This document shows, piece by piece, positions 26,597 through 33,653 of a DNA stretch of 35,419 nucleotides. The translations under genes and the position numbers were made by a program. Every line of letters begins with the position of its first letter. Position 1 is the stretch's first letter. Below the pieces are notes generated by a model, which was not told the origin of the DNA, ran no database searches, and saw only the letters and a program-made list of their open reading frames with translations. Location of the stretch: UHGV virus genome UHGV-0163616; one strand, given 5' to 3'. This DNA is from a virus.

Positions 26597-26875
26597 TCAG
26601 GCCTCGAAGAATTCGCCGTTCTTCGGGGCTTTTTCTTTTGTCAGCATTCTGGCTACTTTCTTAGCCAGTTCCGCCAACTCCTCGTCTTCAACACCCCACT
26701 CCAGTACAGCCAGAAGCATGGCCATCTTTGGGATAAAGCTGTCTTTCCATCGCGAAATTTGCGATTCATTGATCCCTAATGCATCAGCAACCTTTCGCTG
26801 ACCACGTACAGCAATTCGATTCAGGATGTTGCTTGTAATTGCATTCGCTTTCTTGCGAGTACTTGTAAGTTCCAT
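26597..26875 (-). CDS. cII: CII-like transcriptional activator
   Basis: 92 aa; core SQISRWK......MLLAVLEWGVEDEELAELAKKVA aligns with lambda CII (SQISRWKRDWIPKFSMLLAVLEWGVVDDDMARLARQVA). Confidence 0.85.
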   Translation of the reverse strand: MELTSTRKKANAITSNILNRIAVRGQRKVADALGINESQISRWKDSFIPKMAMLLAVLEWGVEDEELAELAKKVARMLTKEKAPKNGEFFEA

Positions 26876-27284: not shown

Positions 27285-28001
27285 ATGGAAAATAAAAAAT
27301 CACTGACGACAGAACAGCTGGAAGACGCTAAGCGGCTTAAGGCTTTGTATGAGTCAAAAAAGAAAGAATTGGGAATAACCCAATACTCAATCGCTGATGA
27401 ACTGGGTATCACCCAAGGAGCGGTAGGGCATTATCTTAATGGCAGAAATGCGCTAAACGTTGAGGTTGCATCTGGTTTTGCACGATTGTTGCAAGTCTCA
27501 ATTGCTGATTTTAGCCAGTCAATTGCTGCCAAGGTTGCAGAACAGGCAGAAAGCCTTAAGAGCGATGCCAACGTAAGGTATGCAGGGGAATACAGAGCAG
27601 GAAAGAGGTATCCGGTGTTAAGCAGTATCCAGGCTGGCTCGTGGTGTGAAGCATGCGAACCATACACCATTAAAGACATAGATGTTTGGCTTGAGTCTGA
27701 CGCGCATATTCAAGGTAATGCGTTCTGGCTTAAAGTGGAAGGTGATTCAATGACGGCACCGGTTGGGTTAAGCATTCCAGAGGGAACATTCGTTCTTTTC
27801 GATACCGGAAGGGAGGCGATCAACGGCAGCTTGGTCATAGCAAAACTTTCTGACTCTAACGAAGCAACATTCAAGAAGCTGATAATCGACGGCGGAAATA
27901 AATACCTCAAGGGACTTAATCCTGCATGGCCTCTCGTGCCAATCAATGGAAACTGCAAGATTATAGGCGTTGCAATTGAGACAAAACTAAGGCTGGTTTG
28001 A
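27285..28001 (+). CDS. cI: CI repressor (HTH plus S24 LexA-like autocleavage domain)
   Basis: 238 aa; N-terminus resembles lambda CI; C-terminal domain (KRYPVLSSIQAGSWCEACEPYTIKDIDVWL...FWLKVEGDSMTAP...GNCKIIGVAIE) resembles 434 cI; Ala-Gly cleavage site and Ser/Lys dyad context present. Confidence 0.9.
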   Translation: MENKKSLTTEQLEDAKRLKALYESKKKELGITQYSIADELGITQGAVGHYLNGRNALNVEVASGFARLLQVSIADFSQSIAAKVAEQAESLKSDANVRYAGEYRAGKRYPVLSSIQAGSWCEACEPYTIKDIDVWLESDAHIQGNAFWLKVEGDSMTAPVGLSIPEGTFVLFDTGREAINGSLVIAKLSDSNEATFKKLIIDGGNKYLKGLNPAWPLVPINGNCKIIGVAIETKLRLV

Positions 28002-28387
28002 TCACGCAAGGGGCGATTATGGTTGGAACCGCTATAGCAAGCTTTTTGGGGATGTTGGCAATCTCAACAATTTACGGCTTAGCGCATGCTTTTATTGCGA
28101 AATCTCTATCAGAAAAAATAAGCCAGGCTTGGGCGCATAGATCAGCTCGTTTCATGATTCTGGTGATCATGGCAATACAAGGGATATCTGCATTTATCCT
28201 CTATGGATCAAGCTTATACCTATTGTATCAAGGCGCGACATTTACGCCTTACACCAGTGATTACGGAACTCTATACGATGGTAGTGAAGACATCTCTATG
28301 GCTTGGATCATCTTTGGTTTATCTATGGCCGTGTCTGTTGTAGCAGACATCATTAAGGTAATTCTCGTCTTAACCTTCGCTGACTAA
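27998..28387 (+). CDS. Small polytopic membrane protein translationally coupled to cI (occupies the rexAB slot between cI and OL)
   Basis: 129 aa with about 4 hydrophobic helices; ATG overlaps the cI stop (ATGA); no recognisable family from sequence alone. Confidence 0.6.
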   Translation: MITQGAIMVGTAIASFLGMLAISTIYGLAHAFIAKSLSEKISQAWAHRSARFMILVIMAIQGISAFILYGSSLYLLYQGATFTPYTSDYGTLYDGSEDISMAWIIFGLSMAVSVVADIIKVILVLTFAD

Positions 28388-28517: not shown

Positions 28518-28560
28518 AAATACCTTGGGTATTTACACAATAAAATACCTACAGTATTCT
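28518..28560 (+). promoter_or_regulatory. OL operators (AAATAC-CTTGG-GTATTT at 28518-28534; AAATAC-CTACA-GTATTC at 28543-28559) overlapping PL
   Basis: Same half-site consensus and 25-bp centre spacing as the OR sites; PL -35 TTTACA (28532-28537), 17-bp spacer, -10 TATTCT (28555-28560), pointing rightward into N. Confidence 0.65.
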
Positions 28561-28605: not shown

Positions 28606-28647
28606 GGCTCTTTAACATTGATGGGATTGTCCCGCCGAAATGCGGGA
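28606..28647 (+). promoter_or_regulatory. nutL: boxA (GGCUCUUUAACA) and boxB hairpin (UCCCGC-CGAAAU-GCGGGA)
   Basis: Located between PL and N; boxB identical to the nutR copy. Confidence 0.65.
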
Positions 28648-28754
28648 ACCAAAGAGTAGTTGGCTTTGGGGTGACGTGAAGTGCAGCTGCACGACGGCAA
28701 CCGGAAGATAAGCACCCGGCGCGTCACCGCCAAAGTCAATCATCGGAGGTCAAC

Positions 28755-29027
28755 ATGACAGTAGTCATTACATATCTGGCTGACGATAACGCCAGAAATC
28801 GCCGCAGAGCACGCAGACAGGCTCAACGTGAGCAGGCAATGCAAGAACAGCGACTGGCGCGAAAAATTGCGCTAAAGCTCTCTGGTTGCGTCAGAGCAGA
28901 CAAAGCAGCTTCACTCGGAAGCCTTCGCTGCAAGAAGGTAGATGAATGCAGTGGAAGTATTTGCCTGCCAAACGTAGCTCTTTACGCGGCAGGCTACCGG
29001 AAATCAAAACAACTGACAGCGAGGTGA
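28755..29027 (+). CDS. N: N-type transcription antiterminator (P22 gp24-like) with arginine-rich motif
   Basis: 90 aa; ARM NARNRRRARRQAQREQ; C-terminus PNVALYAAGYRKSKQLTAR resembles the P22 gene 24 C-terminus; GGAGG Shine-Dalgarno; downstream of nutL. Confidence 0.8.
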   Translation: MTVVITYLADDNARNRRRARRQAQREQAMQEQRLARKIALKLSGCVRADKAASLGSLRCKKVDECSGSICLPNVALYAAGYRKSKQLTAR

Positions 29028-30774: not shown

Positions 30775-31143
30775 ATGTCAAACATCAAAAAATACATCAT
30801 TGATTACGACTGGAAAGCATCAATAGAAATTGAAATCGACCATGACGTAATGACAGAGGAAAAACTTCACCAGATTAATAATTTCTGGTCAGACTCTGAA
30901 TACAGACTCAAAAAACACGGCTCTGTATTAAATGCTGTATTAATCATGCTAGCGCAACATGCTCTGCTTATAGCAATTTCAAGCGACTTAAATGCATATG
31001 GTGTTGTGTGTGAGTTCGACTGGAATGATGGAAATGGTCAGGAAGGATGGCCTCCAATGGATGGTAGCGAAGGAATAAGAATTACCGATATCGACACATC
31101 TGGAATATTTGATTCAGATGATATGACTATCAAAGCCGCCTGA
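30775..31143 (+). CDS. Hypothetical protein
   Basis: 122 aa acidic ORF; AT-rich. Confidence 0.55.
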   Translation: MSNIKKYIIDYDWKASIEIEIDHDVMTEEKLHQINNFWSDSEYRLKKHGSVLNAVLIMLAQHALLIAISSDLNAYGVVCEFDWNDGNGQEGWPPMDGSEGIRITDIDTSGIFDSDDMTIKAA

Positions 31144-31218
31144 GCGCGGCTTTACCGCATACCAATAACGCTTCACTCGAGGCGTTTTCGTTATGCAATC
31201 AAACAGAAGGAGCATCCT

Positions 31219-31389
31219 ATGCAACAGTTCGCTATTGCAGGGGCGGCATCGGTTCGCCCTTTCAACCCGATTTTATCGGTACAGCATTCAAGAAAAAACA
31301 TTCTAACCGGAGCAGACTTTAAACAACCAAGAATGAAAAGTTTGCTCGAAAAGCTTTGGGATATTTTGAAACAACAAGGCCGCCCATGA
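31219..31389 (+). CDS. cIII: CIII-like protein (candidate FtsH inhibitor)
   Basis: 56 aa ORF not in the ORF track; N-terminus MQQFAIAG and C-terminus LWDILKQQGRP align with lambda CIII (MQYAIAG...LIDILNQPGVP); GGAG Shine-Dalgarno upstream. Confidence 0.5.
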   Translation: MQQFAIAGAASVRPFNPILSVQHSRKNILTGADFKQPRMKSLLEKLWDILKQQGRP

Positions 31390-31470
31390 GTTTTACAGAT
31401 AACTGGTCAGACGAAGAATTCATTCGTCAGATGAACAAAATGCTCAATCAGCACAAAGAACAGGAGAAAG

Positions 31471-31782
31471 ATGATGATTCTGACTCTGAATGATAAGCGT
31501 GAAATATCGCAAATCATCGCAAGTTTTACTGATGAAGATTACGAACGAATCAACAGTGAAGTTGATCGCCTCTGCAAACGCTGCGACCCAATAAGCGAAA
31601 TGCTTCGCTCATATAAGCCAGATGAACACACTAAGGACGCTATCGACTGGCTGGAAGATGATGACTGTGACTATCAGGAAAAAGCCGCTGAATGGTTCTG
31701 GGATGCAATAACCGAAAGAGTTAAGGCTGAATATGCCTTCGCAATATTCAAACGCAGACACATTTATGGAGAAGCAGCATGA
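31471..31782 (+). CDS. Hypothetical protein upstream of recT
   Basis: 103 aa; stop overlaps recT start (ATGA). Confidence 0.55.
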   Translation: MMILTLNDKREISQIIASFTDEDYERINSEVDRLCKRCDPISEMLRSYKPDEHTKDAIDWLEDDDCDYQEKAAEWFWDAITERVKAEYAFAIFKRRHIYGEAA

Positions 31783-32681
31783 GCAATATCGTTGAATTCG
31801 TTAAACAGCAGGAGCAGTTATTCTGCGGAGCATTGACTGAACAGACGGTGACATGGGCTAAGGAAAGCCAGTTTGCAATTCAGTATTTCCAGAAAAATGA
31901 TTACCTGGCTAAAACGGCACTGGCAAATCCAACCAGCGCACAGAACGCCATCATCAATGTTGCGGCGATCGGCATCACCTTAAACCCGGCCAGCAAACTT
32001 GCTTATCTAGTTCCGCGCGACGGCATGGTTTGCCTTGATATCAGCTATATGGGATTACTTCACCTTGCACAGTCGACAGGATCAATTAAGTGGGGGCAAT
32101 GTAAACTGGTGTACTCAAACGACACCTATGAATCAAACGGCCTTGATTCAGCGCCAACCCACAAATACAACGCATTTGGTGAGCGAGGCTCTATTGTTGG
32201 TGGTTATTGCACGGTTAAAACAGCAGATGGTGACTACCTGACTGAAGAAATGAGTCTGGCAGAAATTAAAGCTGTGGAAGCAACGAGCAAGGCAAAGAAT
32301 GGACCGTGGAAGACATTCTGGGAAGAGATGGCGCGTAAAACAATAGTTAAACGCGCCAGCAAATACTGGCCTAAAGCCCAGCGACTGGATAATGCCATTC
32401 ACCTGCTTAACGAAGATGAAGGTATGCATCAGGAACCAGTTATGCCGCACAAATCAGAGGAAGATATCCGCGAAGATGAACGGAAACGCCAGCAGGAAAT
32501 AATGGAAAAAGCACAACTTCTTTGTGATGAAATGGCTCAGGCAGAAAACATGGATGATTTGAAACGATATTTTGCAGAAGCATATCGCCTGACATCTGGA
32601 ATGAAATTGCAGCAGAACGTACAAGCCATTTACATAGAATGCAAAGCGAAACTGGAGGTTGCCAGTGAGCAAACTATATGA
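31779..32681 (+). CDS. recT: RecT-family single-strand annealing protein
   Basis: 300 aa; GPWKTFWEEMARKTIVKRASKYWP matches the RecT signature GPW.T.WEEMAKKTAIRR..KYLP of Rac RecT. Confidence 0.85.
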   Translation: MSNIVEFVKQQEQLFCGALTEQTVTWAKESQFAIQYFQKNDYLAKTALANPTSAQNAIINVAAIGITLNPASKLAYLVPRDGMVCLDISYMGLLHLAQSTGSIKWGQCKLVYSNDTYESNGLDSAPTHKYNAFGERGSIVGGYCTVKTADGDYLTEEMSLAEIKAVEATSKAKNGPWKTFWEEMARKTIVKRASKYWPKAQRLDNAIHLLNEDEGMHQEPVMPHKSEEDIREDERKRQQEIMEKAQLLCDEMAQAENMDDLKRYFAEAYRLTSGMKLQQNVQAIYIECKAKLEVASEQTI

Positions 32682-33158: not shown

Positions 33159-33473
33159 ATGAAAAAGACTCCATGGGAGAAATGGGAAGTCGATTTCTTG
33201 CGCGAAGTAGCGGCGACAATGCCAGTTGAAGTTATCGCTGAAAAACTGGAAAGGACTGAAAAAGCAGTTATGGCGAAAGCAACAAGGATTGGCGCTGACA
33301 TTGTTAGCCGACTTCGTGGAAGACGCTGGACAAGAGCCGAAGTATCACTTTTCGGTAAGTTCTCCGCAGAAGAAATAGCAATTGCAACCTGCCGCTCAAT
33401 TTATTCAGTAAGAGCTATGCGATACAAGCTAAAAAAACTCGATGAAGAAAGAGCAGGCATACGAATAAATTAA
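33159..33473 (+). CDS. Hypothetical protein with internal two-fold repeat, possible DNA-binding
   Basis: 104 aa; two similar W..EV..L.......A.E.I segments; basic. Confidence 0.5.
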
Positions 33474-33653
33474 CAAAGAGGAATTTACCATGAGAGGACT
33501 TGCATACAATCCCGGCATTCTTCCGGCAGAAATGATTATTCGCCAACGCGTAAAACCAATGCCATCGAGAGAGGAATTGCTTAAAAGAAATAGTTTCGGT
33601 TCTGTTAATGACAACAGATATCTGAATGCGATGTGGCGCAAAGGAGGCAACCA

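Follow-up and report, generated by a model that had tools for sequence, protein, structure and literature searches.

A 56-amino-acid ORF in the early-left operon of a lambdoid phage is, by its substitution pattern and by profile-profile comparison, a real, translated and conserved gene and a divergent relative of the CIII family. Its homologues seem to form a distinct class beyond the lambda and HK022 classes, the only two recognised in a 2007 survey (PMC1838920). The ORF is probably the cIII gene of this phage, that is, it would encode an FtsH-inhibitory, CII-stabilising lysogeny factor acting through a C-terminal amphipathic helix, the FtsH step being one that we infer. The window, by which we mean the whole stretch of 35,419 nucleotides that was analysed and to which all coordinates refer, covers the greater part of an E. 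coli phage that is lambdoid, mosaic, and P22-like, with best matches to vB_EcoP-720R6, phiv205-1, Kapi1, and CUS-3.

A conserved gene with its own translation signals

The ORF occupies positions 31219-31389 of the plus strand and encodes the protein MQQFAIAGAASVRPFNPILSVQHSRKNILTGADFKQPRMKSLLEKLWDILKQQGRP. Its exact position from ATG to TGA, as given in the original prediction, was confirmed in the sequence, and so was the Shine-Dalgarno motif reported with it (Table 1). The ATG is the sole in-frame start back to the upstream stop codon at 31141-31143, and no alternative start was found in this interval.

Homologues were collected as 46 clusters at 90% identity and 38 clusters at 50% identity (from 1.8 billion proteins), and genomic loci were compared from seven genera, Escherichia, Shimwellia, Pluralibacter, Pseudocitrobacter, Buttiauxella, Pantoea, and Izhakiella, and additionally from a Hafnia phage and an Erwinia phage. 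Across the family, the length of the protein is constant at 53-63 amino acids. In 45 pairwise comparisons among 10 homologues (from Escherichia, Pluralibacter, Pseudocitrobacter, Buttiauxella, Pantoea, Izhakiella, the Hafnia phage, and the Erwinia phage), pS was at or near saturation, with values of 0.6-0.9, and pN was 0.17-0.5. Since the synonymous sites are saturated and the protein is conserved, the ORF is evidently translated. A GGAG/AGGA-type motif is found at the same distance from the start in most of 10 family loci, L010 and L013 having a weaker GAGG, and 12/12 family loci show a stop-start overlap with the next ORF (ATGA, GTGA, or TAATG), despite the fact that the downstream ORFs at these loci belong to several unrelated types.

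It is extremely improbable that the ORF is non-coding, either as a chance reading frame or as sequence kept only for the sake of an RNA or DNA element. The ORF is admittedly small, it shares its sequence with two further short ORFs, on both strands, and there is some nucleotide-level conservation at its 5' end; however, synonymous saturation together with conserved amino acids extends over the 10 loci and the 38 clusters at 50% identity, the frame has stayed open at constant length, and the Shine-Dalgarno motif and the stop-start overlap recur as described above. Both non-coding readings, that of a chance ORF included, are effectively refuted by the substitution pattern.

Table 1. Features of the cIII-like gene and its surroundings in window coordinates.
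Feature	Position	Strand	Description	Basis
CII gene	26597..26875	-	presumed beneficiary of the cIII-like protein	PF05269 E 2.5e-42, full length; PHROG 191
pL-like promoter	28532..28560	+	TTTACA-17-TATTCT	promoter scan
boxA-like and boxB-like elements	about 28606-28648	+	boxA-like GCTCTTTAACA and boxB-like hairpin, 3' of the pL-like promoter	sequence read
N antiterminator	28755..29027	+	first gene of the operon with the cIII-like gene	PF25694 E 4.6e-16; PHROG 271
Ea10 (DUF2528)	30775..31143	+	upstream neighbour, as in lambda	PF10800 E 1.8e-47
Terminator-like hairpin and T-run	31167..31186	+	just 5' of the ORF; hairpin identical to that of lambda	terminator scan
Shine-Dalgarno	31207..31212	+	AAGGAG, 6 nt 5' of the ATG of the ORF	sequence
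cIII-like CDS	31219..31389	+	ATG start, 56 aa, TGA stop	ORF list; PHROG 550
N-terminal module	31219..31263	+	residues 1-15, MQQFAIAGAASVRPF; common to canonical CIII	hhalign, shuffles
Small predicted hairpin	31240..31260	+	GGGGCGGCAUCGGUUCGCCCU, codons 8-14	MFE and centroid folds
Central segment	31264..31329	+	residues 16-37, NPILSVQHSRKNILTGADFKQP; family-specific	family alignments, middle-only hhalign
Predicted C-terminal amphipathic helix	31330..31383	+	residues 38-55, RMKSLLEKLWDILKQQGR	AlphaFold2, hydrophobic moment, hhalign
Next small ORF	31386..31493	+	35 aa; its ATG overlaps the TGA of the cIII-like gene (ATGA)	PHROG 17766, E 5e-16
RecT	31779-32681		early-left operon, 3' of the 103-aa ORF	

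Similarity to canonical CIII

Pairwise searches did not connect the ORF with lambda CIII. A single BLASTP comparison of the two proteins gave an E value of 0.025, which is not significant, and a tblastn search with lambda CIII over the whole window returned two fragments of the ORF at E 8.5-16, not above noise. No match to Pfam PF02061 was obtained for the ORF even at E <= 10, and none in NCBIfam. PHROG 550 matches the ORF at E 1e-22 and contains lambda CIII as well (1.4e-31), but this family evidently already includes the subclass of the ORF, which makes its score non-independent evidence, and homology was therefore tested independently by profile-profile alignment.

With hhalign, the ORF family aligned to canonical CIII with a probability of 96.3% (E 1.8e-9, score 45.2). 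When the columns of the canonical alignment were shuffled (n=200), the score was 8.8 +/- 2.0 with a maximum of 15.4, so that 0/200 shuffles reached the observed value, and the probability had risen from 95.3% to its final value as the family alignment grew. The N-terminal part alone scored 25.4 and the C-terminal part alone 23.5 (90% probability, E 1.6e-6), each reached by 0/200 shuffles. The middle alone scored 4.8 and was equalled by 136 of the 200 shuffles, which means that it has no similarity to canonical CIII. The signal thus consists of the N-terminus (MQxxAIAG) and a C-terminal helix with QxGxP. These results bear out the earlier claims that both termini of the ORF align with lambda CIII and that its centre diverges from the amphipathic helix of the lambda protein; the alignment with the CIII family that had been suggested as a check is positive at the profile level and not in the pairwise comparison.

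Longer members of the family bridge the two classes. The L012 sequence SRLQQLWERLLQVVAQEGRP can be aligned gap-free with lambda RKLRDGWKRLIDILNQPGVP (lambda residues 24-43), the two being identical at L26, W30, R32, L33, Q39, G41, and P43, and the N-terminus AGAASGCP of L012 and L013 resembles AGWPVAGCP of lambda. PF02061 is the Pfam family matched by the largest number of members, namely 4/31, and these matches are weak, the best having an E value of 0.0032 and 18 bits against a cut-off of 25.7 bits; the three that were individually resolved all map to the C-terminal helix and not to the N-terminus. An HMM of the ORF family run against 1.84 billion representative proteins retrieved 38 relatives and no canonical CIII at E <= 1e-3. 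In the same search, long matches to P0123, a TPR-like repeat protein, and P0127, another repeat protein, were rejected as spurious, being summed over repeats. A sequence search of the PDB with the family profile returned noise only.

On these alignments, the C-terminal helix of the ORF product appears to be homologous to lambda CIII residues about 24-43, including the QPGVP cap. Lambda CIII (PF02061, 'protease FtsH-inhibitory lysogeny factor CIII') has 54 amino acids, compared with 56 in the ORF, and the two share the slot after Ea10, the MQxxAIAG start, a helix ending in QxGxP, a lambda-type CII, and membership in PHROG 550. In contrast, the ORF lacks the invariant core of lambda CIII, ESLLERITRKLRxGWKRL, and the protein ends at the proline equivalent to P43, which in lambda lies in mid-chain, so that there is no C-terminal tail. 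The HK022/P22 C3 class, the second class of the survey (PMC1838920), occupies the same operon slot and has the same size as the ORF, and the family members P0031, L006, L014, and L015 have an N-terminus of the MTFAI(A/S)GGxV type that is typical of it; however, the HK022/P22 class keeps the full core ESLLERITRKLRxGWKRLxDILNQPGVP, which the 56-amino-acid class does not. SpoVM of Bacillus, a small amphipathic-helix inhibitor and substrate of FtsH that is discussed in PMC1838920, is likewise a short helical peptide, but the resemblance is one of concept only, and host, context, and biology differ.

The central segment and the C-terminal helix

Residues 14-37 of lambda CIII (ESLLERITRKLRDGWKRLIDIL) are essential and sufficient for its function, and the substitutions S17A, R24A, L26A, R27A, and R32A each lead to a cIII- phenotype (Kobiler et al. 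2007, PMC1838920). In the hhalign register, three of these five essential residues are conservatively replaced in the ORF (L26 by M39, R27 by K40, and R32 by K45), S17 and R24 are not kept and align to I18 and P37, respectively, and lambda L33, D35, I36, and L37 are matched by L46, D48, I49, and L50, with the limitation that the C-terminal register is uncertain by one turn of the helix: if W47 is the counterpart of lambda W30, R32 aligns to I49. The full essential region is therefore not present in the ORF, where only about its second half is recognisable.

In place of the first half of the lambda helix (SESLLERIT), the ORF has a longer segment that is peculiar to its family, PILSVQHSRKNILTGADFKQP. 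Residues T30, F34, and K40 are conserved in at least 90% of the family, and the centre has a nearly invariant T30 and an LTGADF motif. As the centre is well conserved within the family although it is unlike canonical CIII, it is presumably functional in its own right.

An AlphaFold2 model of the ORF product, of low confidence overall (pLDDT 59.7), contains one fairly confident helix at residues 42-54 (pLDDT about 78). The best hydrophobic moment over 18 residues is 0.60, for residues 38-55, a value reached by 84/2000 shuffles; the moment of lambda CIII is 0.83, reached by 0/2000. As ranges, the moments are 0.60-0.67, compared with 0.83-0.92 for lambda. The models thus predict an amphipathic helix in the ORF product that is shorter and weaker than that of lambda CIII.

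Position in the early-left operon

The immunity region of the window contains CII, Cro, and CI (27285-28001), in this order, and then a pL-like promoter; the assignments of pL, boxA, and boxB are made from position and resemblance only. The early-left order is N, SieB (on the opposite strand), small ORFs, Ea10, the 56-amino-acid ORF, a 35-amino-acid ORF, a 103-amino-acid ORF, RecT, and a Mu-Gam-like protein. As the gene order in lambda is Ea10, cIII, kil, gam, bet, the ORF sits in the slot of cIII. Ea10 of the window is 99% identical to the lambda Ea10 protein, and the 3' end of the gene together with the Ea10-cIII spacer is about 97% identical to lambda until about position 31196 (window ~31100-31196 against lambda 33465-33560). 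The terminator-like hairpin in front of the ORF is one that we take, from its position, to correspond to lambda tL2b. The abrupt loss of identity at the ribosome-binding site, just 5' of the Shine-Dalgarno motif, marks a sharp mosaic joint. Placement in the early-left operon, which the original prediction had proposed, is supported by this position directly after Ea10 and a lambda-like spacer, with CII encoded in the same window.

Wherever N could be identified in a related locus, the gene is found 3' of it on the same strand, and CII homologues are present in 7 related loci. Canonical CIII was not found in the window (best tblastn E 0.62), nor in the related genomic loci, in which the flanks of the family gene were searched to a distance of at most 6 kb in either direction. 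The same slot, the apparent mutual exclusivity with canonical cIII, and the retention of a CII partner form the pattern expected of a functional equivalent.

Several neighbouring features were recorded in passing. The 35-amino-acid ORF, at whose position lambda has kil, is itself overlapped by the 103-amino-acid ORF (31471-31782). Different, longer proteins in L004 and L005 begin with the first ~20 residues of the 35-amino-acid ORF (MSFTDNWSDEEFIRQM), and this ORF is missing from the annotation of HK140. Between cI and pL, a 129-amino-acid ORF (27998-28387, plus strand) encodes a very hydrophobic, membrane-protein-like product at the position of rexB and other prophage-expressed exclusion genes. 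In two related loci, a tRNA gene lies immediately 5' of N, where nutL would be expected (L014 811-890, from Hafnia phage Pocitis76, and L008 3958-4029).

The start region and constraint at the nucleotide level

The start region of lambda cIII, used as a positive control, matches the Rfam family RF01804 (Lambda_thermo) at 88.5 bits. No match to this family was obtained in the window at E <= 10 or in the five family loci L007-L010 and L012 at E <= 1, and no Rfam RNA family was found at or near the gene. The predicted fold of the window start region is no better than those of shuffled sequences (z -0.37, compared with -2.61 for lambda). The RNA thermoregulator of the lambda cIII type is absent here, a further difference from lambda cIII beside the missing PF02061 and NCBIfam matches. 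Translation of the gene must therefore either be controlled in another way or lack such control. Likenesses to RF01804 in the window are the ATGCAA start, the string ATTGCAGGG, and a short UGCAA/UUGCA stem at the AUG.

Stems at the gene start vary among the loci. In L007 (5985-6043, a Pseudocitrobacter prophage), a 15-bp stem pairs the Shine-Dalgarno motif and the AUG with codons 10-15, as in a lambda-like sequestering hairpin of different sequence; the start regions of L006 and L015 have an 8-bp CCACGAUG/CGUCGUGG stem, and that of the window only the UGCAA/UUGCA stem, of 5 bp.

Identity at third codon positions among six diverged loci (L008, L009, L010, L012, L013, and the window) is 0.78 in codons 5-15 (window 31231-31263), compared with 0.38 in the rest of the gene. 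The codons GCA GGG GCG GCA TCG are invariant in 5/6 of these loci, and L012 differs only by GCT for GCA. A hairpin equivalent to that at 31240-31260 is predicted in most family loci, with weak covariation, and RNAalifold on 10 start regions yielded only a 7-pair hairpin with negligible covariation, so a conserved regulatory RNA structure is not claimed. The 80 loci returned by a scan of viral contigs all encode the identical protein of the ORF and are uninformative for covariation. In addition to the constraint on the protein, codons 5-15 would thus be constrained as nucleotides, by a recombination joint or by a translational control element. This may be the reason for the conservation of the CIII N-terminus, which lambda CIII does not need for its activity. 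Part of the N-terminal similarity to CIII may accordingly be a signal of RNA or recombination.

A rival reading would have only the initiation region and the first ~15 codons in common with cIII, through recombination or RNA constraint, and would treat the remainder as an unrelated peptide whose C-terminal likeness is convergent. Consistent with such a mosaic gene, nucleotide conservation is confined to the 5' part, the identity with lambda breaks exactly at the ribosome-binding site, the string from the Shine-Dalgarno motif to codon 2 (AGGAGCACACCATGCAA) is identical in lambda and the Buttiauxella homologues, and a helix with a QxGxP cap is generic enough for the TPR-like repeat protein P0123 to match the C-terminal motif. 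We nevertheless regard a mosaic gene of this kind as very unlikely, because the C-terminal part reaches its score against canonical CIII on its own, the longer members align gap-free to lambda 24-43, and the weak Pfam Lambda_CIII matches fall on the C-terminal helix rather than on the N-terminus.

Proposed role in lysogeny and the significance of the class

As the ORF lies in the pL operon 3' of N, transcription antiterminated by N would read through the terminator-like hairpin just 5' of it. The ORF has a strong Shine-Dalgarno motif and is closely packed with the next small ORF by the ATGA overlap. If it is a cIII gene, as we think probable, the C-terminal helix (residues about 38-55) would bind the membrane protease FtsH (HflB) and inhibit it competitively; the lambda-type CII activator, stabilised for a time in this way, would favour lysogeny. 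Independent annotators have converged on cIII-type names for the gene, in mEpX1, in RefSeq, and in Pocitis76.

A different possibility is that the ORF descends from CIII and has changed its job. The central segment (SIQHSRxNILTGADF) may redirect the protein to another target, for which HflKC, another protease (Lon or RseP), or a membrane or division function can be suggested, or FtsH may be inhibited by another binding mode. Such a change is suggested by a centre that is unlike canonical CIII yet conserved in the family at T30, F34, and K40, by the missing half of the lambda essential region with its two lost essential residues, and by the absence of the lambda cIII regulatory RNA. The strict positional equivalence with cIII, the apparent mutual exclusivity with the canonical gene, and the constant co-occurrence with CII argue against it, and a new function would more likely have been added beside cIII than have replaced it; we therefore consider a changed job unlikely. 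Quite unlikely, too, is the more specific proposal of a natural 'half-CIII', in which the C-terminal helix half would be combined with SIQHSRxNILTGADF as a new module, giving another mode of binding to FtsH or FtsH-HflKC, or another target, perhaps with codons 5-15, conserved in nucleotide sequence, and their hairpin as the control element instead of the lambda thermoregulator.

With the role of a cIII gene as the preferred reading, the picture of the lysis-lysogeny decision is unchanged by the ORF, and its main value lies in correcting annotation and in a natural test of the helix. The 56-amino-acid class can be read as an experiment of nature, in which part of the 24 residues defined by lambda genetics as essential and sufficient for FtsH inhibition has been deleted and replaced. 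It bears on the question of which half of the helix matters, and on whether the control of CIII translation by RNA structure is dispensable.

Distribution and existing annotation

The identical protein is encoded in 32 phage records and in at least 80 IMG/VR contigs, and the gene is found at >=95% nucleotide identity in 349/5,426 complete E. coli genomes (about 6%), being named 'hypothetical protein' in those listed. The original prediction had described the ORF as unannotated. This holds for the ORF track from which that description was made, but HK140, mEpX1, and other phages have an annotated copy of this 171-nt gene, which is already known by annotation as cIII in several public phage genomes. 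The identical CDS is F844_gp43 in HK140, and it lies inside mEpX1_036, whose start is further upstream. The identical protein is called 'putative cIII protein' in mEpX1 and 'CIII anti-termination' in the RefSeq records of HK140, HK542, SPN9CC, and others, and the homologue of Hafnia phage Pocitis76, 46% identical, is called 'CIII-like protease inhibitor'; most GenBank phage records label the gene 'hypothetical protein'. Experiments on the 56-amino-acid class were not found in a literature search covering cIII of HK140, mEpX1, SPN9CC, HK542, and Pocitis76.

There is thus an annotation gap, in that neither Pfam PF02061 nor the NCBI naming models detect the class. CIII is a protease inhibitor, and the label 'CIII anti-termination' in RefSeq is a misnomer that misdescribes its function. 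This name spreads from PHROGs (PHROG 550) into RefSeq phage records. The NCBI bacterial pipeline names canonical CIII correctly and leaves the 56-amino-acid class as 'hypothetical protein'.

In one E. coli prophage protein, P0016 (74 amino acids), the cIII-like protein is joined in frame, at its residue 9, to the arginine-rich N-terminal part of lambda N (MDAQTRRRERRAEKQAQWKAAN), as if a deletion in a prophage remnant had brought N and cIII together.
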